A stretch of 64,000 bases of DNA from Escherichia coli. GTDB taxonomy: Bacteria > Pseudomonadota > Gammaproteobacteria > Enterobacterales > Enterobacteriaceae. Under the pieces are notes generated by a model that did no database searches, was not told the DNA's origin, and worked only from the letters and a program-made list of their open reading frames with translations. Shown here one piece after another: positions 45,671 to 64,000 of the stretch; position 1 is the first letter of the stretch, and every line of letters begins with the position of its first letter. Where the stretch lies: assembly GCF_041248615.1 (NCBI RefSeq), contig NZ_CP158426.1; one strand, given 5' to 3'. The position numbers and the translations under genes are program-made.

Positions 45671-47905
45671 ATGGTTGCGGTAAGAAGTGCACATATCAAT
45701 AAGGCTGGTGAATTTGATCCGGAAAAATGGATCGCAAGTCTGGGTATTACCAGCCAGAAGTCGTGTGAGTGCTTAGCCGAAACCTGGGCGTATTGTCTGC
45801 AACAGACGCAGGGGCATCCGGATGCCAGTCTGTTATTGTGGCGTGGTGTTGAGATGGTGGAGATCCTCTCGACATTAAGTATGGACATTGACACGCTGCG
45901 GGCGGCGCTGCTGTTCCCTCTGGCGGATGCCAACGTAGTCAGCGAAGATGTGCTGCGTGAGAGCGTCGGTAAGTCGGTCGTTAACCTTATTCACGGCGTG
46001 CGTGATATGGCGGCGATCCGCCAGCTGAAAGCGACGCATACCGATTCTGTTTCCTCCGAACAGGTCGATAACGTTCGCCGGATGTTATTGGCGATGGTCG
46101 ATGATTTTCGCTGCGTGGTCATCAAACTGGCAGAGCGTATTGCTCATCTGCGCGAAGTAAAAGACGCGCCGGAAGATGAACGCGTACTGGCGGCAAAAGA
46201 GTGCACCAATATCTACGCGCCGTTGGCGAACCGTCTTGGGATTGGACAACTGAAATGGGAGCTGGAAGATTACTGCTTCCGTTATCTCCACCCGACCGAA
46301 TACAAACGCATCGCAAAACTGCTGCATGAACGCCGTCTCGACCGCGAACACTATATCGAAGAGTTTGTCGGCCATCTGCGCGCTGAGATGAAAGCTGAAG
46401 GCGTTAAAGCTGAAGTGTATGGTCGTCCGAAACACATCTACAGCATCTGGCGCAAAATGCAGAAAAAGAACCTCGCCTTCGATGAGCTGTTTGATGTGCG
46501 TGCGGTACGTATTGTCGCCGAGCGTTTACAGGATTGTTATGCCGCACTGGGGATAGTGCACACTCACTATCGCCACCTGCCGGATGAGTTTGACGATTAC
46601 GTCGCTAACCCGAAACCAAACGGTTATCAGTCTATTCATACCGTGGTTCTGGGACCAGGTGGCAAAACCGTTGAGATCCAAATCCGCACTAAACAGATGC
46701 ATGAAGATGCAGAGTTGGGTGTTGCTGCGCACTGGAAATATAAAGAGGGCGCGGCAGCTGGCGGCGCACGTTCGGGACATGAAGACCGGATTGCCTGGCT
46801 GCGTAAACTGATTGCGTGGCAGGAAGAGATGGCTGATTCCGGCGAAATGCTCGACGAAGTACGCAGCCAGGTATTTGACGACCGGGTGTATGTCTTTACG
46901 CCGAAAGGTGATGTCGTTGATTTGCCTGCGGGATCAACACCGCTGGACTTCGCTTACCACATCCACAGTGATGTCGGGCACCGCTGCATCGGGGCAAAAA
47001 TTGGCGGGCGCATTGTGCCGTTCACCTACCAGCTGCAGATGGGCGACCAGATTGAAATTATCACCCAGAAACAGCCGAACCCCAGCCGTGACTGGTTAAA
47101 CCCAAACCTCGGTTACGTCACAACCAGCCGTGGGCGTTCGAAAATTCACGCCTGGTTCCGTAAACAGGACCGTGACAAAAACATTCTGGCTGGGCGGCAA
47201 ATCCTTGACGACGAGCTGGAACATCTGGGGATCAGCCTGAAAGAAGCAGAAAAACATCTGCTGCCGCGTTACAACTTCAATGATGTCGACGAGTTGCTGG
47301 CGGCAATTGGTGGCGGGGATATCCGTCTCAATCAGATGGTGAACTTCCTGCAATCGCAATTTAATAAGCCGAGTGCCGAAGAGCAGGATGCCGCCGCGCT
47401 GAAGCAACTTCAGCAAAAAAGCTATACGCCGCAAAACCGCAGTAAAGATAACGGTCGTGTGGTGGTAGAAGGTGTCGGTAACCTGATGCACCACATCGCG
47501 CGCTGCTGCCAGCCGATTCCTGGAGATGAGATTGTCGGCTTCATTACCCAGGGGCGCGGTATTTCAGTGCATCGTGCAGACTGTGAGCAACTGGCGGAAC
47601 TGCGCTCCCATGCGCCAGAACGCATTGTTGACGCGGTATGGGGCGAGAGCTACTCCGCCGGATATTCGCTGGTGGTCCGGGTGATGGCCAATGATCGCAG
47701 TGGATTATTGCGTGATATCACGACCATTCTTGCCAACGAGAAGGTGAACGTGCTTGGCGTTGCCAGCCGTAGCGACACTAAACAGCAACTGGCGACTATC
47801 GACATGACCATTGAGATTTACAATCTGCAAGTGCTGGGCCGCGTGCTGGGTAAACTCAATCAGGTGCCGGATGTTATCGACGCGCGTCGGTTGCACGGGA
47901 GTTAG
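45671..47905 (+). CDS. relA: GTP pyrophosphokinase, (p)ppGpp synthetase I
   Basis: 744 aa. Confidence 0.95.
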   Translation: MVAVRSAHINKAGEFDPEKWIASLGITSQKSCECLAETWAYCLQQTQGHPDASLLLWRGVEMVEILSTLSMDIDTLRAALLFPLADANVVSEDVLRESVGKSVVNLIHGVRDMAAIRQLKATHTDSVSSEQVDNVRRMLLAMVDDFRCVVIKLAERIAHLREVKDAPEDERVLAAKECTNIYAPLANRLGIGQLKWELEDYCFRYLHPTEYKRIAKLLHERRLDREHYIEEFVGHLRAEMKAEGVKAEVYGRPKHIYSIWRKMQKKNLAFDELFDVRAVRIVAERLQDCYAALGIVHTHYRHLPDEFDDYVANPKPNGYQSIHTVVLGPGGKTVEIQIRTKQMHEDAELGVAAHWKYKEGAAAGGARSGHEDRIAWLRKLIAWQEEMADSGEMLDEVRSQVFDDRVYVFTPKGDVVDLPAGSTPLDFAYHIHSDVGHRCIGAKIGGRIVPFTYQLQMGDQIEIITQKQPNPSRDWLNPNLGYVTTSRGRSKIHAWFRKQDRDKNILAGRQILDDELEHLGISLKEAEKHLLPRYNFNDVDELLAAIGGGDIRLNQMVNFLQSQFNKPSAEEQDAAALKQLQQKSYTPQNRSKDNGRVVVEGVGNLMHHIARCCQPIPGDEIVGFITQGRGISVHRADCEQLAELRSHAPERIVDAVWGESYSAGYSLVVRVMANDRSGLLRDITTILANEKVNVLGVASRSDTKQQLATIDMTIEIYNLQVLGRVLGKLNQVPDVIDARRLHGS

Positions 47906-48000
47906 TCTTACATAGCTGGATATGGCGTCAGCCGTATCCAGCGATATCTTTTACTCGAAGGTATTACACCTGACGGACCCGCAATTTTCAGGACATTCTA

Positions 48001-48792
48001 ATGAATCAAATCGACCGTTTGCTCACCATCATGCAGCGCCTGCGCGATCCGGAAAACGGCTGCCCGTGGGATAAAGAGCAGACATTTGCCACCATTGCAC
48101 CTTACACCCTTGAAGAAACCTACGAAGTGCTGGACGCCATTGCCCGTGAAGATTTTGACGATCTGCGCGGTGAACTCGGCGATCTACTGTTCCAGGTGGT
48201 TTTTTACGCACAAATGGCTCAGGAAGAAGGGCGCTTTGACTTTAATGATATATGCGCCGCGATCAGCGATAAATTAGAACGTCGCCATCCGCATGTTTTT
48301 GCTGACAGTTCTGCCGAAAACAGTAGTGAAGTGCTTGCCCGTTGGGAGCAAATCAAAACCGAAGAGCGCGCGCAGAAAGCGCAGCATTCGGCGCTGGACG
48401 ATATTCCTCGTAGTTTACCGGCTTTAATGCGTGCGCAAAAAATCCAGAAACGTTGCGCCAACGTTGGTTTTGACTGGACGACGCTTGGTCCGGTAGTCGA
48501 TAAAGTCTACGAAGAGATCGACGAGGTGATGTACGAGGCACGGCAGGCTGTTATCGACCAGGCTAAACTGGAGGAGGAAATGGGCGACCTGCTGTTTGCC
48601 ACGGTCAATCTGGCTCGTCATTTAGGGACAAAAGCGGAAATCGCATTGCAAAAAGCGAACGAAAAATTCGAGCGTCGTTTTCGCGAAGTGGAGCGTATTG
48701 TTGCCGCGCGTGGACTGGAAATGACAGGTGTTGACCTCGAAACAATGGAAGAAGTCTGGCAACAGGTAAAACGGCAGGAAATTGATCTCTAA
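48001..48792 (+). CDS. mazG: Nucleoside triphosphate pyrophosphohydrolase MazG
   Basis: 263 aa from MNQIDRLLTIMQRLRDPENGCPWDKEQTF; starts 95 bp after the relA stop. Confidence 0.95.
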   Translation: MNQIDRLLTIMQRLRDPENGCPWDKEQTFATIAPYTLEETYEVLDAIAREDFDDLRGELGDLLFQVVFYAQMAQEEGRFDFNDICAAISDKLERRHPHVFADSSAENSSEVLARWEQIKTEERAQKAQHSALDDIPRSLPALMRAQKIQKRCANVGFDWTTLGPVVDKVYEEIDEVMYEARQAVIDQAKLEEEMGDLLFATVNLARHLGTKAEIALQKANEKFERRFREVERIVAARGLEMTGVDLETMEEVWQQVKRQEIDL

Positions 48793-52974: not shown

Positions 52975-53267
52975 TATAAATGTCCCATTAAAGCTGGATA
53001 AATAAATTGACGGCGGCATCGGTAATTTGAGATTCGTTATAATTAAAAACGAACACAGAAAAAATAAGTATAATTTTGGTGAATGTTTTTGACATGATTA
53101 AATCCCTTTACTTTATTTATTTCTGACATAATACGTTACTCCCTTTTATTATTAACGATCTGTTTCTCATTTTTCTTTAAACCTGCCTGTAACAGAATGT
53201 TAATAAGACATGATTGTTGTGGCAGGATCTGCAATAATTAACAATTATCCACTTCACAGAGAATGCT

Positions 53268-54129: not shown

Positions 54130-54277
54130 GGTATAGAATTACTTTAAATATTTGGCTTTTCAATCAATGAATTAAGTGCTCTTTAACATAATGGATGTGT
54201 TGTTTGTGTGTTTCTGTTAAGTTGGTAGATTGTGACTGACTTAAAAAATCAATAATTAATAATAGGTTATGTTTAGT
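54130..54277 (+). promoter_or_regulatory. Putative CRISPR leader (AT-rich) abutting repeat 1
   Basis: AT-rich tract immediately 5' of the first repeat on the repeat-sense strand; no promoter elements were verified. Confidence 0.5.
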
Positions 54278-54672
54278 GAGTTCCCCGCGCCAGCGGGGAT
54301 AAACCGGCTGATGCGGTTCTATCACCACCACAAATTATGAGTTCCCCGCGCCAGCGGGGATAAACCGCAAATACGCGCGAGTGGCTAACCTGGAATCATG
54401 AGTTCCCCGCGCCAGCGGGGATAAACCGGCGCGGACGATAATCAGGGGCAGGCAGGGCACGAGTTCCCCGCGCCAGCGGGGATAAACCGGAAATCCAATA
54501 TTAACGTGGTGTTTTCAAAACGAGTTCCCCGCGCCAGCGGGGATAAACCGCGTTTAGCTCCGCAATGCTGGATATCACTGATGAGTTCCCCGCGTCAGCG
54601 GGGATAAACCGTATGGGAAACAGTAGCAACGGGCACACTGGCGGAGTTCCCCGCGCCAGCGGGGATAAACCA
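54278..54672 (+). CRISPR. Type I-E CRISPR array, 7 repeats and 6 spacers, no cas genes in window
   Basis: 29-bp repeat GAGTTCCCCGCGCCAGCGGGGATAAACCG at 54278, 54339, 54400, 54461, 54522, 54583 and 54644 with 32-bp spacers. Repeat 6 has C13T; the last repeat ends ...CCA instead of ...CCG. Corresponds to the ygcE-ygcF array of E. coli (established knowledge). Confidence 0.95.
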
Positions 54673-55310: not shown

Positions 55311-56789
55311 TTACGCATTCGACCAGCTCTGGATCGAATCCGCATTCCCCAATTCACCATGCATCACTTCATACGATTTTTTCAGGATCACATCAGTGTG
55401 CTTGGTTAGGTCTTTGAAAATGCCTTTATTCATCGCGTCGTAGCGTTTGGCGTTGCTCTCAACAGGCATAAAGATATCTTTCACGCGAACCATTTTGTCG
55501 ACAGCCGTTGCGTAATCCGGGTATAGCCCCAGACCTACCGCCGTATTAATCGCTGCCCCCAGACTTGCACAACCATTAATGGCGTTACGGCGTGCCGGAA
55601 GGTTGAACACGTCGGCAAAAATCTGCATAAACAGATCGCTGTTCGAACCGCCGCCAGTAATGATCACATGCTTTGCAAAGTGATTCATTTCATTACACAT
55701 ATTGTCGTAATTGTTCTTCAGCGTCAGCGCCACGCTTTCCAGTATCGAACGATATATCCATGCGTAATCCATGCTGGAATCAAAGCCGATCATAATCCCG
55801 CGTTTGTACGGTTCCCACGGATTGGTCAGCCAGTCCAGCACCGTCATCAGACCATTACAGCCAGGCGGCACACAAGACGCTTTTTTGTTGAGTAAATCTT
55901 CCGGTGAAAGATCCTGTGCTTTGGCATCCTGAATTAACGACTCGCCTAACATGTCGCGCAGCCAGCTCACTGTCCACATGCCTTTGCGGATACCGTAACC
56001 TTCATACAGCAATGTTTGCGGAATAGAAGACATAATCGGCCAGTACGCTACCGGATCTTTCGGCAGTGCTTTGCCGTTCATCATCAACGCGATGTAAGTG
56101 CCAAGAGAAATTACCGCAGTTTCATCATCCAGTAACCCGGCTCCCAGTGCTTCTACCGGTTTATCACTGGTGGTACAAACAACCGGCAGCCCAGCCGGGA
56201 AATGTGTCGCCAGCGCGGCTTGACGAGTGATATGCCCAAGAACAGTGCCCGGCATTTGCACATCAAACAGCATATGACGGGGGATATTAAACTTCTCCAT
56301 GACTGCGGCATCTTCACTCCATGCCCAGGTCTTATAATCCACCGGCCACTGACCAAAATAGTTGGCGATATTGTCTTTAAACTCGCCGGTTAAGCGATGC
56401 GTCAGATAACCCGAAAAAGAGGTGACATATGCCACGTCAGGATTCGTATGTTCGTAAGGGCGTGTAACGCGTGCATCCTGCCAGCTAATCAACGGCGCAG
56501 CTGGCGTGCCATCGGCTTTCAATAACGCACGGCAGCAACGGATGGATCCCAGACCAATACCGACAATATCTTCTTTATTTCCGGCAAACTGACTCATCAA
56601 ATCGTGACCGGCAAAGCATAATGATGCCCATAAATCGTCGTCAGGATGTTCTGCGGTATCGGCATCTGGCGTGTGCATCGGCTGCAATAAGCCTTTGCCT
56701 TCGCAAACCACATTACCTTCCAGATCGTACATCACCACTTTTGTGCTCTGACTTCCACCATCAATCCCTATGATGTATTTTTTCGACAT
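55311..56789 (-). CDS. ygcE: FGGY-family carbohydrate kinase, substrate unknown
   Basis: 492 aa. Confidence 0.85.
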   Translation of the reverse strand: MSKKYIIGIDGGSQSTKVVMYDLEGNVVCEGKGLLQPMHTPDADTAEHPDDDLWASLCFAGHDLMSQFAGNKEDIVGIGLGSIRCCRALLKADGTPAAPLISWQDARVTRPYEHTNPDVAYVTSFSGYLTHRLTGEFKDNIANYFGQWPVDYKTWAWSEDAAVMEKFNIPRHMLFDVQMPGTVLGHITRQAALATHFPAGLPVVCTTSDKPVEALGAGLLDDETAVISLGTYIALMMNGKALPKDPVAYWPIMSSIPQTLLYEGYGIRKGMWTVSWLRDMLGESLIQDAKAQDLSPEDLLNKKASCVPPGCNGLMTVLDWLTNPWEPYKRGIMIGFDSSMDYAWIYRSILESVALTLKNNYDNMCNEMNHFAKHVIITGGGSNSDLFMQIFADVFNLPARRNAINGCASLGAAINTAVGLGLYPDYATAVDKMVRVKDIFMPVESNAKRYDAMNKGIFKDLTKHTDVILKKSYEVMHGELGNADSIQSWSNA

Positions 56790-56815
56790 GATTTTTCTCC
56801 TGTAATTTTCTGGAC

Positions 56816-58093
56816 TTACTTGCTGCTAGCCATAGCAGGGGCGCTATCAGCAGTACGAATTTTTTGGAACAGCAAAAAGGTAAAGACGATCACCATGGCA
56901 AGCGCCGCCATGCCCATCAGCCACATATTGCGGTAGGCTTCTGCAGCGGGCAGGGTGTCTTGCCAGTAGCCGATAATCGGGTAAACGAAGACATCCGGCA
57001 GGAATCCAATCACCGAACAAATACCTACCGTGGTGCCCATAATGTAAGACGGTGTTCTCGCTTCGCCAGGGCAGGCCCAGTACAGCCCGCGTGAGGCGTA
57101 ACAGGTGAATCCCAGCAGTAAAATCAGGCCAATCCCCATCGCGACCGATTGCGGGTTAGAGTTCGTGACGAGCAGGGCAGTTAACGCCAGCAAGCCGAGT
57201 ACGGAAAGGATTTGGATCACGCGGGTAGGGGATTTCACTTTGCTGTAGGTGGTGATAATGCCACCAAGTGGGCCGCACAGTGCGCGGAAGATTTTGTTGA
57301 TCACAATCCCCATGTAGCTCGCCGCCACCAGCGACATGCCGTACATTTCGGTCAGATAGTTGGTGGAGTAACTCAGAATGGCGTAGATGGTGAAGACACC
57401 AAAAATCACCATGCTGCAATACCAGGTGGTGCTGATGCGCAAAACAGCCAGGATGTCGCTAAGCTGGAATGACTGTTTTTCTTCGTTATTGGTATTGCGC
57501 AGGTTGTTGTTATCGCTAACAAAAAACCAACACAAAATGCCCAGCAGAATGTAAACCACACTATAGATAATAATGACCGTTTTCAGGCTGGCGCTGTCAT
57601 CCGGTGCAAAGCGAGAAAAGACCCACATGGTAAACACCGCCAGCGACATTACACCGACGCCGCGCAGCCCTTCCATCCAGCCCATAATTTTCCCTTGCTC
57701 GCTATGATCGCCCAGCAACGAGGCGGCTTTAATCGACACCGACCACAGCATTAAAATCGTCGTTATCGCAAAGGCGACCTGAATACAGAGCATTACCCAC
57801 AGCGGTGGATATGTTGCCATTAACAGACCCAGTAATCCGGTAATGATCATCGCGGAAGTAATCATTTTGCGGTGTGAAAATTTATCGGCAATAACGCCGC
57901 TGGGGGCATAAAGAATAATAGCCGCAATACCAAAGGTACTCATTATTAAACCTATCTCGGTATTGCTGAATCCCATAAATTTCGCCATGGGAATTTGATA
58001 AATATAACGTAAATAAGCCAGGTCGAAACTAACGCCGCCGCTAAAACTAATTATCGCGAGGGTTATCCAACGGCGATATGAGTTGTGTTGCAT
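56816..58093 (-). CDS. yqcE: MFS transporter, substrate unknown
   Basis: 425 aa polytopic. Confidence 0.85.
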   Translation of the reverse strand: MQHNSYRRWITLAIISFSGGVSFDLAYLRYIYQIPMAKFMGFSNTEIGLIMSTFGIAAIILYAPSGVIADKFSHRKMITSAMIITGLLGLLMATYPPLWVMLCIQVAFAITTILMLWSVSIKAASLLGDHSEQGKIMGWMEGLRGVGVMSLAVFTMWVFSRFAPDDSASLKTVIIIYSVVYILLGILCWFFVSDNNNLRNTNNEEKQSFQLSDILAVLRISTTWYCSMVIFGVFTIYAILSYSTNYLTEMYGMSLVAASYMGIVINKIFRALCGPLGGIITTYSKVKSPTRVIQILSVLGLLALTALLVTNSNPQSVAMGIGLILLLGFTCYASRGLYWACPGEARTPSYIMGTTVGICSVIGFLPDVFVYPIIGYWQDTLPAAEAYRNMWLMGMAALAMVIVFTFLLFQKIRTADSAPAMASSK

Positions 58094-58412
58094 ATCGTAT
58101 TCCCATTTGTAATAGACAAAAAAAAGAGAAAAGTAAGCCGCCCTTTCAGGTGGATTACTTTTCTCAGGTCTCTAGTAATTGCAATAAGAAATAACATGGA
58201 AAGCAGTGGTGTTGTGTGAGAGTAATCACGCTTCTGCTTTTTAAAATTATTTGACAATTCGAATATCACACTGTGATTACGATCACATTAGCGATTATGC
58301 CCTTATGATAAAAATTATCTCCAGTTACCAGAGATAATGAGAAAGGTAACTTCCCTCTCGCGGGGGAAGTTACCTTTCTTTTTTTTTTGCCTTACGGAAA
58401 TTGGAGCTAACT

Positions 58413-59198
58413 ATGTCAATCGAATCTCTCAATGCGTTCTCAATGGATTTTTTCTCCCTGAAAGGTAAAACCGCAATTGTTACCGGCGGGAATAGCGGTT
58501 TAGGCCAGGCATTTGCCATGGCGCTGGCCAAAGCAGGCGCAAATATCTTTATTCCAAGCTTCGTTAAAGATAACGGCGAAACAAAGGAAATGATTGAAAA
58601 ACAGGGTGTTGAGGTGGACTTCATGCAGGTGGATATCACCGCAGAAGGCGCGCCGCAGAAGATAATCGTCGCCTGTTGCGAACGTTTCGGTACCGTCGAT
58701 ATTCTGATTAACAATGCCGGTATTTGTAAGCTGAATAAGGTGCTGGACTTCGGTCGTGCCGACTGGGACCCGATGATTGATGTGAACCTGACCGCCGCAT
58801 TCGAGTTAAGCTATGAAGCTGCAAAAATTATGATCCCGCAGAAAAGCGGTAAAATCATTAATATCTGTTCATTATTCTCTTACTTAGGTGGACAATGGTC
58901 ACCTGCATATTCTGCCACTAAACATGCTCTTGCCGGATTCACCAAAGCTTATTGTGATGAACTAGGTCAATATAATATTCAGGTAAATGGTATTGCCCCT
59001 GGCTATTATGCAACAGATATTACGCTGGCGACACGCAGTAATCCAGAAACTAATCAGCGCGTTCTTGATCATATTCCGGCAAACCGTTGGGGCGATACTC
59101 AGGATTTAATGGGCGCAGCCGTATTCCTCGCAAGTCCGGCTTCAAATTATGTTAACGGGCATTTATTAGTGGTCGATGGCGGTTATTTAGTGCGCTAA
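58413..59198 (+). CDS. ygcW: Short-chain dehydrogenase/reductase
   Basis: 261 aa from MSIESLNAF with GGAG ribosome-binding site; TGGNSGLG cofactor motif; the track ORF starts 4 codons earlier. Confidence 0.85.
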   Translation: MSIESLNAFSMDFFSLKGKTAIVTGGNSGLGQAFAMALAKAGANIFIPSFVKDNGETKEMIEKQGVEVDFMQVDITAEGAPQKIIVACCERFGTVDILINNAGICKLNKVLDFGRADWDPMIDVNLTAAFELSYEAAKIMIPQKSGKIINICSLFSYLGGQWSPAYSATKHALAGFTKAYCDELGQYNIQVNGIAPGYYATDITLATRSNPETNQRVLDHIPANRWGDTQDLMGAAVFLASPASNYVNGHLLVVDGGYLVR

Positions 59199-59267
59199 TC
59201 CATAACGGTGGTTTCTGTTTTCTCTTATTAATGATTATTCCATTTTTATTATCAGGAAGGAATTACT

Positions 59268-60722
59268 ATGTCTTTATCTCGCGCAGCGATTGTCGACCAG
59301 CTAAAGAAAATTGTTGGTGCAGATCGCGTAATTACCGATGAAACAGTATTAAAGAAGAACAGTATTGACCGTTTTCGCAAATTTCCGGATATTCATGGCA
59401 TTTATACTTTGCCGATTCCGGCAGCGGTCGTAAAACTCGGTTCCACAGAACAAGTATCCCGTGTGCTGAATTTTATGAATGCGCACAAAATTAACGGTGT
59501 GCCGCGTACCGGTGCTTCCGCTACCGAAGGTGGGCTGGAAACCGTTGTGGAAAACTCGGTGGTGCTCGACGGCTCTGCCATGAATCAAATCATTAATATT
59601 GATATTGAGAATATGCAGGCCACGGCGCAATGCGGAGTTCCGCTGGAAGTGCTGGAAAACGCGTTGCGTGAAAAAGGTTACACCACGGGGCATTCTCCGC
59701 AGTCAAAGCCGCTGGCGCAGATGGGCGGCCTGGTAGCAACCCGCAGTATCGGGCAGTTCTCCACACTCTACGGCGCAATCGAAGATATGGTCGTTGGTCT
59801 GGAAGCAGTATTGGCTGATGGCACCGTAACACGCATTAAAAACGTACCACGCCGCGCGGCAGGCCCGGACATTCGTCACATCATCATCGGCAACGAAGGT
59901 GCATTGTGCTATATCACTGAAGTAACTGTGAAAATCTTTAAGTTCACCCCGGAAAACAACCTCTTCTACGGCTATATCCTGGAAGACATGAAAACCGGCT
60001 TCAACATCCTGCGTGAAATCATGGTGGAAGGGTATCGTCCGTCGATCGCTCGTTTGTATGACGCTGAAGATGGCACCCAACACTTCACCCATTTTGCTGA
60101 CGGAAAATGCGTGCTGATCTTTATGGCTGAAGGTAACCCTCGCATTGCGAAGGCGACGGGCGAAGGGATTGCTGAAATCGTGGCACGTTACCCGCAATGC
60201 CAGCGAGTGGACAGCAAGCTGATCGAAACCTGGTTTAACAACCTGAACTGGGGACCGGATAAAGTAGCTGCCGAACGTGTGCAGATCCTCAAAACCGGCA
60301 ACATGGGCTTTACCACCGAAGTGTCCGGCTGCTGGAGCTGCATTCACGAAATCTACGAAAGCGTTATTAACCGTATTCGTACCGAGTTCCCGCACGCCGA
60401 CGACATCACCATGCTGGGCGGTCACTCCTCTCACAGCTACCAGAACGGCACCAACATGTACTTCGTTTACGACTACAACGTTGTTGACTGTAAGCCGGAA
60501 GAGGAAATCGACAAGTACCACAATCCGCTCAACAAAATCATCTGCGAAGAAACCATTCGCCTCGGCGGTTCGATGGTGCACCACCACGGTATTGGTAAAC
60601 ATCGCGTTCACTGGAGCAAACTGGAACACGGCAGCGCGTGGACGTTGCTGGAAGGTCTGAAAAAACAGTTCGATCCTAACGGCATTATGAATACGGGTAC
60701 TATCTATCCGATTGAAAAATAA
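59268..60722 (+). CDS. ygcU: FAD-linked oxidoreductase (GlcD / alkyl-DHAP-synthase-like)
   Basis: 484 aa. Confidence 0.85.
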   Translation: MSLSRAAIVDQLKKIVGADRVITDETVLKKNSIDRFRKFPDIHGIYTLPIPAAVVKLGSTEQVSRVLNFMNAHKINGVPRTGASATEGGLETVVENSVVLDGSAMNQIINIDIENMQATAQCGVPLEVLENALREKGYTTGHSPQSKPLAQMGGLVATRSIGQFSTLYGAIEDMVVGLEAVLADGTVTRIKNVPRRAAGPDIRHIIIGNEGALCYITEVTVKIFKFTPENNLFYGYILEDMKTGFNILREIMVEGYRPSIARLYDAEDGTQHFTHFADGKCVLIFMAEGNPRIAKATGEGIAEIVARYPQCQRVDSKLIETWFNNLNWGPDKVAAERVQILKTGNMGFTTEVSGCWSCIHEIYESVINRIRTEFPHADDITMLGGHSSHSYQNGTNMYFVYDYNVVDCKPEEEIDKYHNPLNKIICEETIRLGGSMVHHHGIGKHRVHWSKLEHGSAWTLLEGLKKQFDPNGIMNTGTIYPIEK

Positions 60723-60814
60723 TATGTCAGGCAGCGTTCCGCTATGAGGGGCGTTGCCTTTTCGGCTTCTCAGGCGAGAAGCCGTTCTTATTACCGGACA
60801 ATGAAGGGGTAAAG

Positions 60815-62152
60815 ATGAACACTTCACCGGTGCGAATGGATGATTTACCGCTTAACCGTTTTCACTGTCGAATTGCTGCGCTCACTTTCGGGGCGCACCT
60901 GACCGACGGTTATGTTCTCGGCGTCATTGGTTACGCCATTATTCAGCTTACACCCGCCATGCAACTGACGCCGTTTATGGCGGGAATGATTGGCGGCTCG
61001 GCGCTACTTGGCCTGTTTATCGGTAGCCTGGTTTTGGGGTGGATCTCCGACCATATTGGTCGGCAAAAAATCTTCACCTTCAGCTTTTTGCTGATTACGC
61101 TCGCTTCGTTCTTACAATTTTTTGCCACCACGCCAGAGCATCTTATTGGACTGCGCATTTTGATCGGCATTGGTCTGGGAGGCGATTACTCAGTAGGCCA
61201 CACCTTGCTGGCTGAATTTTCTCCGCGCCGCCATCGCGGTATTTTGCTGGGCGCATTCAGCGTGGTGTGGACCGTAGGCTATGTGCTGGCAAGTATTGCC
61301 GGACATCACTTTATTAGCGAAAGCCCGGAGGCCTGGCGCTGGCTGCTGGCATCGGCAGCTCTGCCCGCATTGTTGATTACGTTATTACGCTGGGGAACGC
61401 CAGAATCGCCACGCTGGCTACTGCGCCAGGGGCGTTTTGCAGAAGCTCACGCTATCGTGCATCGCTATTTTGGTCCCCATGTTTTACTGGGCGATGAAGT
61501 GGCAACGGCGACCCATAAACACATCAAAACCTTGTTCTCTTCGCGCTACTGGCGGCGCACGGCGTTTAACAGCGTCTTCTTTGTCTGCCTCGTAATCCCA
61601 TGGTTTGTGATTTATACCTGGCTGCCAACTATCGCCCAGACTATTGGTCTGGAAGATGCGCTGACAGCTAGCCTGATGCTTAATGCGTTGTTAATTGTGG
61701 GTGCGCTGCTGGGATTAGTTCTGACGCACCTGCTGGCACATCGCAAATTTTTGCTGGGAAGTTTTTTGTTGCTGGCGGCAACGCTGGTCGTGATGGCCTG
61801 TTTGCCTTCCGGCAGTTCATTAACGCTGCTGCTTTTTGTTCTCTTCAGCACCACCATTTCGGCAGTCAGTAATCTGGTGGGCATTTTGCCTGCGGAAAGT
61901 TTTCCTACTGACATTCGCTCGCTGGGCGTCGGTTTTGCCACCGCCATGAGTCGACTTGGCGCGGCGGTAAGTACGGGCCTGCTGCCGTGGGTGCTGGCGC
62001 AGTGGGGAATGCAAGTCACCTTAATGCTCCTGGCGGCAGTGTTGTTGGTTGGTTTTGTTGTGACCTGGCTATGGGCACCAGAAACCAAAGCACTCCCGCT
62101 GGTGGCGGCGGGAAATGTAGGAGGTGCGAATGAACATTCTGTTAGCGTTTAA
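60815..62152 (+). CDS. ygcS: MFS transporter (sugar-porter-like)
   Basis: 445 aa; 3' end overlaps ygcR. Confidence 0.85.
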   Translation: MNTSPVRMDDLPLNRFHCRIAALTFGAHLTDGYVLGVIGYAIIQLTPAMQLTPFMAGMIGGSALLGLFIGSLVLGWISDHIGRQKIFTFSFLLITLASFLQFFATTPEHLIGLRILIGIGLGGDYSVGHTLLAEFSPRRHRGILLGAFSVVWTVGYVLASIAGHHFISESPEAWRWLLASAALPALLITLLRWGTPESPRWLLRQGRFAEAHAIVHRYFGPHVLLGDEVATATHKHIKTLFSSRYWRRTAFNSVFFVCLVIPWFVIYTWLPTIAQTIGLEDALTASLMLNALLIVGALLGLVLTHLLAHRKFLLGSFLLLAATLVVMACLPSGSSLTLLLFVLFSTTISAVSNLVGILPAESFPTDIRSLGVGFATAMSRLGAAVSTGLLPWVLAQWGMQVTLMLLAAVLLVGFVVTWLWAPETKALPLVAAGNVGGANEHSVSV

Positions 62153-62909
62153 AGCCGAACCGGATGCCGGAATGCTGGCGGAAAAAGAGTGGCAGGCGGC
62201 GGCTCAGGGTAATAGCGGACCGGATGTTTCGCTTCTGCGAAGTTTACTCGGTGCTGATGAACAGGCTGCCGCCGCGCTGCTGTTGGCGCAGAGAAAAAAC
62301 GGTACGTCGATGTCCTTAACCGCGTTGAGCATGGGGGATGAACGGGCGTTGCACTGGCTGCGCTATCTCATGGCGCTTGGGTTTGAGGAAGCTGTATTGC
62401 TGGAGACGGCGGCAGATCTGCGCTTTGCGCCGGAATTTGTCGCTCGCCATATTGCCGAATGGCAGCGTCAGAATCCGCTGGATCTGATAATTACCGGCTG
62501 CCAAAGCAGCGAAGGGCAGAATGGGCAAACGCCATTTTTGCTGGCGGAAATGCTGGGCTGGCCCTGCTTCACCCAGGTGGAGCGTTTTACTCTCGACGCG
62601 CCGTTTATCACCCTCGAACAGCGTACTGAAAACGGGCTGCGCTGTTGCCGGGTTCGCTTGCCTGCGGTGATTGCCGTGCGTCAGTGCGGTGAAGTGGCCT
62701 TGCCAGTACCGGGAATGCGCCAGCGTATGGCGGCGGGGAAAGCAGAAATTATCCGTAAAACTGTTGCTGCCGAATCGCCAGCGATGCAGTGTCTGCAACT
62801 GGCAAGAGCAGAGCAACAACGCGGAGCGACGCTGATTGATGGGCAAACGGTAGCAGAAAAAGCGCAAAAGCTATGGCAGGACTATTTACGCCAAAGGATG
62901 CAGCCATGA
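62130..62909 (+). CDS. ygcR: Electron-transfer-flavoprotein beta-subunit-like protein
   Basis: 259 aa from MNILLAFKAEPD with GGAGGTG ribosome-binding site; overlaps ygcS by 23 nt. Confidence 0.8.
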   Translation: MNILLAFKAEPDAGMLAEKEWQAAAQGNSGPDVSLLRSLLGADEQAAAALLLAQRKNGTSMSLTALSMGDERALHWLRYLMALGFEEAVLLETAADLRFAPEFVARHIAEWQRQNPLDLIITGCQSSEGQNGQTPFLLAEMLGWPCFTQVERFTLDAPFITLEQRTENGLRCCRVRLPAVIAVRQCGEVALPVPGMRQRMAAGKAEIIRKTVAAESPAMQCLQLARAEQQRGATLIDGQTVAEKAQKLWQDYLRQRMQP

Positions 62910-63766
62910 ATATCGCAATTGTGACAATAAATCAGGAGAATGCCGCAATAGCGAGCTGGCTGGCAGAACAGGATTTCAGCGGTTGTACCCTGGCACACTG
63001 GCAGATTGAACCTCAGCCCGTAGTGGCGGAACAGGTGCTGGATGCGCTGGTGGAACAGTGGCAGCGAACGCCAGCGGACGTTGTTCTCTTTCCGCCGGGA
63101 ACGTTTGGCGATGAACTGTCGACCCGGCTGGCCTGGCGTTTACATGGTGCAAGCATCTGCCAGGTGACTTCGTTAGATATTCCAACTGTAAGCATGCGCA
63201 AATCCCACTGGGGAAATGCGCTAACGGCGACGCTGCAAACAGAAAAACGCCCGCTATGCCTTTCCCTTGCCCGCCAGGCGGGAGCACTGAAAAACGCCAC
63301 GTTGCCCTCTGGTATGCAGCAACTGAACATTGTCCCCGGCGCGCTTCCCGACTGGCTGGTTAGCACAGAGGATCTGAAAAATGTTACCCGTGACCCATTA
63401 GCTGAGGCCAGACGGGTGCTGGTGGTGGGGCAGGGCGGAGAGGCAGATAACCAGGAAATCGCTATGCTGGCAGAAAAGCTGGGAGCCGAAGTGGGCTACA
63501 GTCGGGCGCGAGTAATGAACGGTGGCGTTGATGCCGAAAAAGTGATTGGTATTTCCGGACATCTGCTGGCACCTGAGGTGTGTATTGTTGTTGGCGCTTC
63601 CGGCGCAGCAGCGTTAATGGCGGGCGTCCGCAATAGCAAGTTTGTGGTGGCGATTAATCATGACGCCAGCGCGGCGGTATTTTCACAGGCAGATGTTGGC
63701 GTGGTTGATGACTGGAAAGCGGTGCTGGAGGCACTGGTGACAAACATTCACGCAGATTGCCAATAA
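62906..63766 (+). CDS. ygcQ: Electron-transfer-flavoprotein alpha-subunit-like protein
   Basis: 286 aa from MNIAIVTINQ; ATGA overlap with ygcR stop. Confidence 0.8.
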   Translation: MNIAIVTINQENAAIASWLAEQDFSGCTLAHWQIEPQPVVAEQVLDALVEQWQRTPADVVLFPPGTFGDELSTRLAWRLHGASICQVTSLDIPTVSMRKSHWGNALTATLQTEKRPLCLSLARQAGALKNATLPSGMQQLNIVPGALPDWLVSTEDLKNVTRDPLAEARRVLVVGQGGEADNQEIAMLAEKLGAEVGYSRARVMNGGVDAEKVIGISGHLLAPEVCIVVGASGAAALMAGVRNSKFVVAINHDASAAVFSQADVGVVDDWKAVLEALVTNIHADCQ

Positions 63767-63810
63767 CGTGCAGCCGGATGATCCTGCCTACGGTTCTGGG
63801 CTGGGGACTT

Positions 63811-63880
63811 GTAGGCCTGATAAGACGCGTCAAGCGTCGCATCAGGCGCTGAATGTCGGATGTGGCGTGCAGCCTACAAA
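63811..63880. repeat. REP elements (BIME) downstream of ygcQ
   Basis: tgtaggcctgataagacgcgtcaagcgtcgcatcaggcg and gtcggatgtggcgtgcagcctaca. Confidence 0.75.
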
Positions 63881-64000
63881 TCACACAAATTCAATTCGTT
63901 ACGATTATCCCGACAAAGCAATTTTTTCGCTAGCGTCCAGACCCCGGTATTCGTGGTGGAAAGCGCCACGACACCTGCGTTAATCGCATTACGCGCATCT

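Follow-up and report, generated by a model that had tools for sequence, protein, structure and literature searches.

Organisation of the ygc locus

The ygc gene cluster of Escherichia coli, to which this study is devoted, occupies positions 55311-64000 of a stretch of 64,000 nucleotides from contig NZ_CP158426.1, which we refer to as the window. We propose that GlpP-type antitermination governs here a catabolic operon with an unprecedented set of enzymes. The entire window is 100% identical to positions 1120001-1184000 of the chromosome of E. coli NRZ14408 (NZ_LT599825.1), the cluster interval corresponding to 1175311-1184000 of that chromosome, likewise at 100% identity. According to a six-frame list of open reading frames (ORFs) all seven ygc genes annotated by RefSeq within 55311-64000 are uninterrupted. 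Together with the end of ygcP they are arranged as follows (RefSeq annotation):

55311-56789, minus strand: ygcE, FGGY-family kinase, 492 amino acids
56816-58093, minus strand: yqcE, major facilitator superfamily (MFS) transporter, 425 amino acids; first gene of the leftward operon yqcE-ygcE
58413-59198, plus strand: ygcW, short-chain dehydrogenase/reductase (SDR) resembling KduD and gluconate-5-dehydrogenase, 261 amino acids
59268-60722, plus strand: ygcU, FAD-binding oxidoreductase of the VAO/PCMH type, 484 amino acids
60815-62152, plus strand: ygcS, MFS transporter, 445 amino acids
62130-62909, plus strand: ygcR, beta subunit of an electron-transfer flavoprotein (ETF), 259 amino acids
62906-63766, plus strand: ygcQ, ETF alpha subunit, 286 amino acids
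63874-64000, minus strand: 3' end of ygcP, GlpP-family (PF04309) antiterminator; last 127 bases of the window

Past the end of the window the minus strand carries the rest of ygcP, then ygcO (FixX-like ferredoxin) and ygcN (FixC-like flavoprotein), all convergent to ygcQ. The initial annotation of this DNA had surmised that the cluster continues there, which proved right. It had further described a compact set of seven genes with a catabolic look, made up of transporters, kinase, SDR, flavoenzyme and an ETF dedicated to the cluster, and this description is borne out by gene annotation and family matches. RefSeq coordinates, ORF list and sequence also agree with the two gene overlaps it had reported: ygcS and ygcR overlap by 23 nucleotides (the ATG of ygcR, preceded by GGAGG, lies at 62130 and the stop codon of ygcS at 62150-62152), while ygcR and ygcQ have the four nucleotides ATGA at 62906-62909 in common. 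Although apt at the level of the genes, the description had made no mention of YgcP as regulator, of YgcNO as ETF-quinone module or of the two terminators within the leaders of the operons. The possibility that the ORFs are disrupted pseudogenes in most strains is countered by the retention of the region, as at least 80% of the region is found in one place in 5060 out of 5426 complete E. coli genomes (about 93%). The remaining minority, exemplified by strain PSJ-07, shows IS1 insertions or deletions.

As had been presumed, searches of the full-text literature under the gene names and combinations of key terms yielded no assignment of a substrate to any of these genes, and a review from 2022 still lists YgcRQ as being of unknown function (PMC9329746). 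What these searches retrieved on the ygc genes consists of regulon and promoter catalogues, CRISPR-typing papers which use ygcE as a landmark, a paper on the engineering of nicotinamide mononucleotide (NMN) production, and a test of ygcU in D-serine signalling with negative outcome. A "YgcO" mentioned in a review on the nitrogen-related phosphotransferase system (PTS-Ntr) turned out to be a typing error for YcgO. The equivalog models of NCBIfam provide no specific name for any of the ten ygc proteins, all scores staying below the curated cut-offs.

A common CRP site and two leader RNAs

The intergenic region between yqcE and ygcW measures 319 nucleotides and contains a perfect CRP site flanked by two leader RNAs of about 70 nucleotides, one for each of the divergent operons:

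58273-58288, no strand assigned: CRP site TGTGATTACGATCACA, common to both divergent promoters and located between the two leaders (from the sequence)
58118-58185, minus strand: yqcE leader with box A (AAUUACU AGAG), purine-rich spacer, terminator GAGAAAAGUAAUCC...GGCUUACUUUUCUC and U8 (covariance model R1 and fold)
58318-58388, plus strand: ygcW leader with box A (AGUUACC AGAG), spacer, 19-bp terminator GAGAAAGGUAACUUCCCUC...GGGGGAAGUUACCUUUCUU and U10 (covariance model R1 and fold)

Exactly this CRP site is listed for ygcW/yqcE in a ChIP-seq study of enterotoxigenic E. coli (PMC4287617), and Footprint-seq yields a Kd of about 1.7 nM for the binding of CRP to it (PMC12871828). It had been predicted earlier by PhyloScan, and the yqcE-ygcE operon is reported to be activated by Crp (PMC8085971). 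A CRP site at -41.5 would place the start of the ygcW transcript at about 58322, right at box A.

Both leaders terminate 24 nucleotides ahead of the ATG of their respective gene and contain the element GAGAAA(G/A)GUAA...UUAC(C/U)UUUCU. The same element is present upstream of ygcW homologues in other genera, where it is preceded by a box A of the form (A/G)GUUAC(Y)AGAG which is complementary to GUAAC in the 5' arm of the terminator. The yqcE leader scores 72.8 bits with R1, the covariance model of the leader (E = 3e-13; fold z = -4.2), and its terminator (approximately 58165-58126, minus strand) reaches -20.7 kcal/mol compared to -1.4 kcal/mol for the nascent antiterminator hairpin. The ygcW leader (R1 74.5 bits, E = 1.3e-13) folds with -42.9 kcal/mol (z = -6.05); its terminator, located at 58339-58380 on the plus strand and made up of 19 pairs including 8 G-C pairs, accounts for -31.8 kcal/mol as against -6.2 kcal/mol for the antiterminator hairpin. 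Within an alignment of 40 sequences pairing amounts to 99.4% in the lower stem of the terminator and to 96.1% in the antiterminator helix, which box A forms with the 5' arm of the terminator; five of the seven pairs of the antiterminator helix display compensatory changes (GUUAC/GUAAC, AUUAC/GUAAU and GUCGC/GCGAC, for example). None out of 500 shuffles matched the observed pairing or covariation of this helix, a statistic which overstates independence since the aligned sequences are phylogenetically related and were first gathered by means of a regular expression.

The occurrence of the leader closely follows that of ygcP. Besides the two ygc leaders, which are its sole full-length matches in the window, R1 returns only two weak ones representing the reverse strands of the same palindromes. 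Upstream of ygcN neither a leader nor a terminator was found. All 36 enteric loci searched possess exactly two leaders each, and one to three matches are present in every non-enteric locus encoding YgcP. A match exists in each of the 59 loci with YgcP, 58 of them being strong and one (L082) amounting to only 31 bits, while R1 yields no match in Desulfobacula-type loci, in which a GntR regulator takes the place of YgcP. Within E. coli the leader is present, though unannotated, in 5063 of the 5426 genomes. In metagenomes the exact leader pattern was met at five loci, which without exception are ygc-type clusters or adjoin a ygcP homologue; this number is too small for a regulon census. A scan against Rfam 15 produced no family match at E <= 1 within the yqcE/ygcW intergenic region; its only matches were sub-threshold ones, namely naRNA4 on a repetitive extragenic palindromic (REP) element and a spurious snoRNA. 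A further conserved hairpin, GGAAAGCAG...CUUCUGCUUU, is located at 58199-58243 between the CRP site and the box A of yqcE and may belong to a yqcE 5' untranslated region (UTR) of greater length.

Both hairpins are perfect intrinsic terminators and, being partly palindromic, score on the opposite strand as well, so that one might regard them as plain insulating terminators or, alternatively, as parts of a riboswitch which senses a metabolite without the aid of a protein. Yet, they are oriented in the sense direction between CRP-dependent promoters and start codons, covariation links box A to the 5' arm of the terminator, and the element tracks ygcP across phyla and resembles canonical GlpP-controlled leaders. 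Moreover, the roughly 30 nucleotides ahead of the terminator are dominated by a loop, are too small for a typical aptamer and have no match in Rfam. Taken together, this renders both alternatives very improbable. Co-regulation of the two divergent operons is plausible, as they have in common one CRP site bound in vivo and in vitro and carry the same leader element.

Proposed assignment of the leaders to YgcP

The nearest relative of YgcP in the PDB is GlpP of Listeria (3kts, E = 1e-27, residues 11-184). RefSeq names YgcP a glycerol-3-phosphate responsive antiterminator, and its homologues in the loci L002 and L005 carry PF04309; with about 55-60% identity between E. coli and Bacillota YgcP constitutes a subfamily of its own. 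In Bacillus subtilis, GlpP together with glycerol-3-phosphate overrides terminators in the 5' UTRs of glpD, glpFK and glpTQ (PMC9604022, PMC10573289).

For comparison with canonical leaders we used the glpP-glpF-glpK-glpD loci of Priestia megaterium and Lysinibacillus. There, a box of four to five nucleotides is followed by a purine-rich loop (GGAGA...GAGAGA or AGGA...GGAA) and by a complementary box inside the 5' arm of the terminator. The two glpD leaders of these loci are weakly matched by R1, with 17 and 13 bits. The ygc leaders thus have in common with the B. subtilis glp regulon a PF04309 regulator, intrinsic terminators in the 5' UTRs and a weak hairpin with a purine loop which overlaps the 5' arm of the terminator. 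The ygc antiterminator hairpins range from -1.4 to -8.4 kcal/mol as compared to -20 to -32 kcal/mol for their terminators; if the glp leaders are included, the terminators cover -20 to -37 kcal/mol, the antiterminator hairpins being weak in both groups. The weakness of the antiterminator next to the terminator suggests that the attenuator needs a protein. A further parallel is the presence of a kinase of the glycerol kinase superfamily, which presumably makes the phosphorylated inducer. In contrast to the glp leaders, those of the ygc cluster form a distinct conserved sequence family (R1 scores 12-17 bits on canonical glpD leaders compared to 46-84 bits on ygc leaders) and are, in E. coli, combined with CRP. 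Furthermore, the place of GlpD is taken by an SDR, a flavoenzyme related to alkyl-dihydroxyacetone-phosphate (alkyl-DHAP) synthases and an ETF. The glpP locus of Listeria (L086) has neither glpFK nor glpD adjoining.

The locus therefore presents what characterises GlpP-type control, that is, a PF04309 regulator, an intrinsic terminator in the 5' UTR of each operon and an overlapping alternative structure. On the grounds of the RNA architecture, the co-occurrence with ygcP and the resemblance to glp leaders we assign both E. coli leaders to YgcP as its putative targets. The ligand of YgcP would be an analogue of glycerol-3-phosphate, probably not glycerol-3-phosphate itself. That CRP and YgcP-dependent attenuation at two leaders jointly control the cluster appears likely to us.

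In the 21-kb locus L034 of Serratia microhaemolytica both leaders are present (77.9 and 69.9 bits), but no ygcP homologue was detected.

The core genes in other phyla

A comparison of genome neighbourhoods, as envisaged in the initial annotation, reveals that the core genes travel together (tblastn synteny table over 85 loci). YgcW, YgcU, YgcE and usually YgcP are found jointly in Enterobacterales, Bacillota, Desulfobacterota and Actinomycetota. For YgcU the identity amounts to 65-76% in Bacillota, Desulfobacterota, SAR324, Photobacterium and Saccharopolyspora, and for YgcW to 63-82% in loci of other phyla. Most enterics as well as anaerobes have the ETF pair, which is missing from loci of the Erwinia/Pantoea type and from halophilic bacilli; YgcNO (FixCX) is confined to enterics. 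Two contigs labelled "Planctomycetota MAG" (metagenome-assembled genome; L006) and "Chryseobacterium sp." (L029) carry a ygcU 99% and 88% identical to that of E. coli, with L029 showing the complete enteric gene order; both are probably contaminating enterobacterial contigs.

The transporters of enteric loci belong to the MFS (YqcE, YgcS). A transporter of the betaine/choline/carnitine family (BCCT) is encoded in 14 of 38 non-enteric loci, many of the other 24 being short contigs. The minimal unit of Halobacillus halophilus consists of ygcP divergent from ygcW-ygcE-ygcU-BCCT, and Alkalihalobacillus possesses a seven-gene operon coding for an aspartase-like lyase, an aldehyde dehydrogenase resembling betaine-aldehyde dehydrogenase, a zinc-dependent alcohol dehydrogenase, BCCT, YgcW, YgcE and YgcU. 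Several of the anaerobic versions of the cluster have MTTB-family methyltransferases, corrinoid proteins and pterin methyltransferases as neighbours. Six copies of the leader are located directly upstream of BCCT genes in four Bacillota loci and an MTTB gene follows a leader in one further locus (Sporomusa, Dethiosulfatibacter and MAGs of Clostridia/Bacillota), which puts BCCT and MTTB genes into the same regulon. Their association argues for a quaternary-ammonium substrate outside the enterics, which we consider fairly probable. In the full-text literature we found no paper which brings BCCT together with FGGY, nor one which deals with BCCT along with ETF, kinase and SDR; a search with mixed terms returned solely papers on methylamine or glycine-betaine methyltransferases.

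Neighbours in several lineages are aldehyde dehydrogenases, aldo-keto reductases resembling methylglyoxal or L-glyceraldehyde-3-phosphate reductases, a glycerol dehydrogenase and a formaldehyde-activating enzyme; a further one is a SurE-like phosphatase. Operons of Photobacterium and Clostridia additionally code for a second oxidase of the GlcD/LctD type (with GEHG or SEHG), an EtfB of its own and an EtfA with a ferredoxin domain. This LctBCD-like module (L005, 13187-16591; L064, 13246-16793; L069) does not exist in E. coli.

The active site of YgcU

YgcU is composed of the domains FAD_binding_4 and FAD-oxidase_C, and its homologues (PF01565 plus PF02913) exhibit the two-domain flavoprotein fold of the VAO/PCMH family. 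The initial annotation had regarded it as a GlcD-like oxidase, which is misleading, as its nearest solved relatives are alkyl-DHAP synthases (AGPS, also ADPS). Among all PDB sequences the best match is mammalian AGPS (4bby, E = 4.8e-40) and the alkyl-DHAP synthase of Dictyostelium reaches E = 2e-38, whereas glycolate oxidase (E = 9e-26), the lactate dehydrogenase LctD, D-lactate dehydrogenase (D-LDH) and D-2-hydroxyglutarate dehydrogenase (D2HGDH) are weaker. In a Foldseek search with an AlphaFold model of YgcU the top 32 matches are without exception AGPS chains (E down to 4e-27, TM score about 0.52); since this model, calculated from an alignment of 11 sequences, is of moderate quality (pLDDT 67), we take the fold match as mere support for the sequence result.

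Residue-level alignment, with the equivalences fixed via the deposited R419H and Y578F mutant entries of AGPS, relates Arg419, Tyr578 and His615-617 of AGPS to R262, Y398 and H438-H440 of YgcU. These residues are invariant in an alignment (A1) of 11 YgcU homologues from four phyla, taken from Enterobacterales, Sporomusa, Alkalihalobacillus, Desulfobacula and Photobacterium. At the position of the HHHG of YgcU glycolate oxidase has GEHG, and the second oxidase co-encoded in anaerobes (FADox2) has GEHG or SEHG. The established mechanism of AGPS together with the conserved catalytic residues would argue for a DHAP-type substrate of YgcU substituted at C1.

An explanation closer to the initial annotation would be a generic pathway for a sugar, polyol or hydroxy-acid, in which YgcU, as an enzyme of the GlcD/D-lactate dehydrogenase type, passes electrons to the ETF in the way LctD does to LctBC or D2HGDH to its ETF. 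It would agree with the domain composition, with GlcD as the best NCBIfam match, with LctD, D-LDH and D2HGDH appearing among the PDB matches, with the ETF genes which follow in the operon, and with the genuine GlcD-type second oxidase which anaerobes carry in the same operon along with an ETF of its own. The score with the GlcD model (TIGR00387), however, is 144.3 bits (E = 5e-42) against a cut-off of 567.9 bits, AGPS is nearer by sequence and fold, and YgcU has HHH where GlcD, D-LDH and FADox2 have G/S-E-H-G. In addition, a generic pathway offers no explanation for the GlpP-type regulator, for the enzyme of the glycerol kinase family or for the association with BCCT and MTTB. We therefore judge it unlikely.

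Considering that AGPS is the closest solved relative and that some databases name the homologues "alkyldihydroxyacetonephosphate synthase", YgcU might also be taken for a true biosynthetic enzyme and the cluster for one that makes ether lipids. YgcU, however, comprises 484 amino acids compared to 584-658 in AGPS, with which it can be aligned from residues 138-215 onwards. Hence, it lacks the N-terminal extension of AGPS (about 150-200 residues) and is not an AGPS orthologue. Importers, kinase, CRP activation and ETF form a catabolic signature, and ether-lipid synthesis is not known from E. coli. Thus, a biosynthetic role is extremely improbable.

Further proteins of the cluster

YgcE matches the xylulokinase, autoinducer-2 (AI-2) kinase and glycerol kinase models of NCBIfam at scores far short of the cut-offs. 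Over the models for xylulo-, glycerol-, ribulo-, fuculo-, rhamnulo-, glucono- and AI-2 kinases its best score is 141.6 bits compared to cut-offs of 380-912, so that no specificity can be assigned. Its nearest PDB relatives are LsrK and glycerol kinases (GlpK), placing it in the glycerol kinase superfamily. Within Enterobacterales (loci L034-L050) two divergent types of YgcE occupy the same position: that of Citrobacter and Cedecea is 79-92% identical to E. coli YgcE, that of Serratia, Rahnella and Erwinia 43-50%, with the neighbouring YqcE and YgcW at 69-86% identity. YgcW scores 348.7 bits with the KduD model, just short of the cut-off of 369. Its nearest relatives in the PDB, 2-deoxy-D-gluconate 3-dehydrogenase and gluconate 5-dehydrogenase, are SDRs oxidising a carbinol next to a terminal CH2OH.

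YqcE shows weak NCBIfam matches to the D-galactonate/ACS and PgtP families; a homologue in Photobacterium with 58% identity sits behind the same leader. YgcS is related to the NiaP, aromatic-acid, sugar-porter and organic-cation families (NCBIfam). It has been described as a NiaP homologue whose overexpression leads to more NMN from nicotinamide (PMC8601175). All four components of an ETF and an ETF-quinone oxidoreductase are matched at family level, YgcR/YgcQ as FixA/FixB-family and YgcN/YgcO as FixC/FixX-family proteins (378 and 83 bits), each below the equivalog cut-off.

The genes for electron transfer have changed far more rapidly than those of the core. When E. coli is compared with Citrobacter or Klebsiella, identity amounts to 93-97% for YgcW, YgcU and YgcP but to only 55-78% for YgcR/YgcQ and YgcO/YgcN from the same loci. 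This divergence could be taken to indicate that the E. coli cluster is a cryptic or decaying remnant, mostly intact but effectively never expressed for want of a gut substrate. Such a view would also accommodate the lack of a reported phenotype or substrate in the literature found, the roughly 7% of complete genomes which have lost or disrupted the cluster (IS1 plus deletion in PSJ-07, for example) and the default-off terminators of both operons. It is at odds with the identity of YgcW, YgcU and YgcP across genera, with leaders which keep their covarying structure, with open ORFs in 93% of the genomes and with a conserved CRP site of high affinity. As conserved core, leaders and CRP site fit purifying selection on a working system, we regard decay as improbable.

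Further features of the window

Beside the genes and leaders the analysed interval contains two palindromic features:

60763-60784, plus strand: G+C-rich 9-bp hairpin without U-tract between ygcU and ygcS, inside the rightward operon (terminator-like scan)
63790-63870, no strand assigned: palindromic element resembling REP or bacterial interspersed mosaic elements (BIME) in the convergent ygcQ/ygcP spacer (from the sequence)

The former, which R1 does not match, may be a processing or stability element. The latter scores 30.9 bits with naRNA4 of Rfam, below the gathering score of 59.5 bits. The CRISPR array noted beside the cluster is indeed present, a type I-E array at 54277-54672 between queE and ygcE, 640 nucleotides from ygcE; the cas genes and another array are situated on the far side of cysH, no longer within the window. 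PSJ-07 has a longer version of the array next to ygcE, with IS1 copies on its flanks. A small gene adjoining ygcG (52988-53129) is annotated as a frameshifted pseudogene of a hypothetical protein; its positional equivalent in PSJ-07 is named yqcG and likewise marked as frameshifted. In the RefSeq annotation of the present strain relA is followed by mazG after a gap of only about 95 nucleotides (window positions 45671-48792). The toxin-antitoxin pair mazE-mazF, which sits between these two genes in K-12, is seemingly absent here.

A proposed pathway

The suggestion in the initial annotation of an oxidised and phosphorylated substrate holds as far as its catabolic frame is concerned, but "sugar, polyol or hydroxy-acid" is too broad: GlpP homologue, glycerol-kinase-family enzyme and AGPS-like enzyme together point to a C1-substituted glycerol or DHAP derivative as the substrate class. 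We consider the chances about even that the cluster represents a regulon for the catabolism of a C1-substituted glycerol-like compound, X-CH2-CHOH-CH2OH, subject to two layers of control. A single scheme can accommodate the relative of a glycerol-3-phosphate sensor, the kinase from the glycerol kinase superfamily, the SDR, the AGPS-like flavoenzyme and the ETF with its ETF-quinone oxidoreductase.

In this scheme CRP-cAMP would activate the two divergent promoters from their one common site. The transcripts yqcE-ygcE and ygcW-ygcU-ygcS-ygcR-ygcQ would each begin with a leader whose default fold is a strong terminator. YgcP, loaded with a phosphorylated intermediate, would stabilise the weak upstream hairpin, in which box A pairs with the terminator 5' arm and which has the purine-rich AGAG...GAGAAAAG loop, so that RNA polymerase reads through. 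The compound would be imported by YqcE and/or YgcS, and YgcE would phosphorylate its free primary hydroxyl group to give a glycerol-3-phosphate analogue, the presumed inducer. YgcW would then oxidise the secondary alcohol at C2 to yield X-CH2-CO-CH2-OP, a C1-substituted DHAP. Using its AGPS-type Tyr/His-His-His/Arg constellation, YgcU would form an adduct at flavin N5 and expel X. Its product would be either DHAP or, as with nitroalkane oxidase, a keto-aldehyde phosphate oxidised by two electrons. In the oxidative variant the reduced flavin would hand its electrons to the ETF YgcRQ and further via YgcN/YgcO to quinone. It is the dedicated ETF which suggests an outcome of the nitroalkane oxidase kind, since plain exchange with water gives DHAP without redox chemistry. 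The aldo-keto reductases and aldehyde dehydrogenases in the neighbourhood would fit the processing of a keto-aldehyde product. For Bacillota, Desulfobacterota, SAR324 and Photobacterium we regard a quaternary ammonium group on X as probable. Glycerophosphocholine (GPC) was considered as a substrate and appears unlikely, as simple phosphodiesterases already cleave it.

For this chemical part of the scheme our confidence is tentative and stays somewhat short of even. Several observations weigh against the scheme as a whole. The conserved catalytic residues do not prove AGPS-type chemistry, and YgcU might simply dehydrogenate a phosphorylated polyol in the ordinary way. Its structural model is of moderate quality, as noted. 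A non-redox exchange of the AGPS type would need no ETF, the oxidative variant being conjectural, and the fast divergence of the ETF/FixCX module could indicate a peripheral role or relaxed constraint. As enterics have MFS transporters instead of BCCT, their substrate may differ from that of other phyla. On the side of regulation, a ygcP homologue was not detected between ygcQ and ygcO in the 21-kb locus L034, and the RNA alignment consists of related sequences.

A more far-reaching reading, which we put forward as doubtful, takes the W-U-E-P core as an unrecognised pathway spread over several phyla. The AGPS-like enzyme would strip an ether-, ammonium- or otherwise-linked C1 substituent off a DHAP derivative ("ether-lipid chemistry in reverse") and deliver electrons to the ETF under the control of a new family of GlpP-type leaders. 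Marine, halophilic and anaerobic bacteria would degrade in this way a quaternary-ammonium glyceryl compound, for example a deacylated betaine-lipid head group such as glyceryl-trimethylhomoserine or glyceryl-carboxyhydroxymethylcholine, and E. coli a substituted glycerol from the gut. The freed betaine or alcohol would feed MTTB methyltransferases or the enzymes resembling alcohol dehydrogenase, betaine-aldehyde dehydrogenase and aspartase.

Relation to known systems and significance

With AGPS/ADPS (PDB 4bby, 2uuu), its best match by sequence as well as by structure, YgcU has in common the fold and the catalytic residues Arg, Tyr and His-His-His. In contrast to the redox-neutral reaction of AGPS, YgcU stands in a catabolic, ETF-linked context which implies net redox, and its leaving group is presumably small and polar instead of a fatty acyl chain. 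A VAO-family gene beside etfB and etfA is also characteristic of the D-lactate and D-2-hydroxyacid dehydrogenases which use an ETF (LctBCD of Acetobacterium, PDB 7qh2; D2HGDH-ETF). YgcU, however, lacks their GEHG motif, and the E. coli cluster possesses the AGPS-like enzyme only. Proteins of the FixA/B/C/X families link the cluster to fixABCX (carnitine) and ydiQRST of E. coli, and the ygc set of ETF proteins has been counted as the third of its kind in this organism (PMC9329746). In contrast to both, its partner dehydrogenase is of the VAO and not of the acyl-CoA type, and the FixCX homologues are encoded in a separate convergent unit, ygcNOP, which is devoid of a leader.

A related metabolic logic is found in polyol-phosphate routes such as the erythritol pathway of Brucella, in which phosphorylation by the FGGY kinase EryA precedes the flavin-dependent oxidation of the polyol phosphate by EryB. 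EryB, however, resembles GlpD and not VAO/AGPS enzymes, and the Brucella system is without GlpP-type RNA control, ETF genes or a link to BCCT. Nitroalkane oxidase provides a mechanistic analogy for the proposed chemistry: a carbanion attacks flavin N5, the leaving group is expelled, and attack by water releases a carbonyl product and reduced flavin. Its fold, which resembles acyl-CoA dehydrogenase, is unrelated to that of YgcU, and the analogy serves solely to explain why an AGPS-like enzyme might require an ETF.

The cluster was already annotated and already recognised as uncharacterised and is not in itself a discovery. What the present analysis adds is a testable model made up of CRP and YgcP-dependent attenuation, an AGPS-like core, and a multi-phylum regulon with BCCT and MTTB partners outside the enterics. 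The ygc genes, including a third ETF system, rank among the larger function-less blocks of the E. coli "y-ome", and the search for their substrate is narrowed to C1-substituted glycerols and DHAP derivatives. Protein-mediated antitermination of the GlpP type would be a rare case in Enterobacteria and defines a conserved leader RNA absent from Rfam. If true, cleavage by an AGPS-like enzyme would mean that an unusual flavin mechanism has found a new use in catabolism. By virtue of its BCCT and MTTB partners, the pathway could constitute a new route of quaternary-amine turnover in marine and anoxic habitats, possibly with release of trimethylamine or methyl groups.

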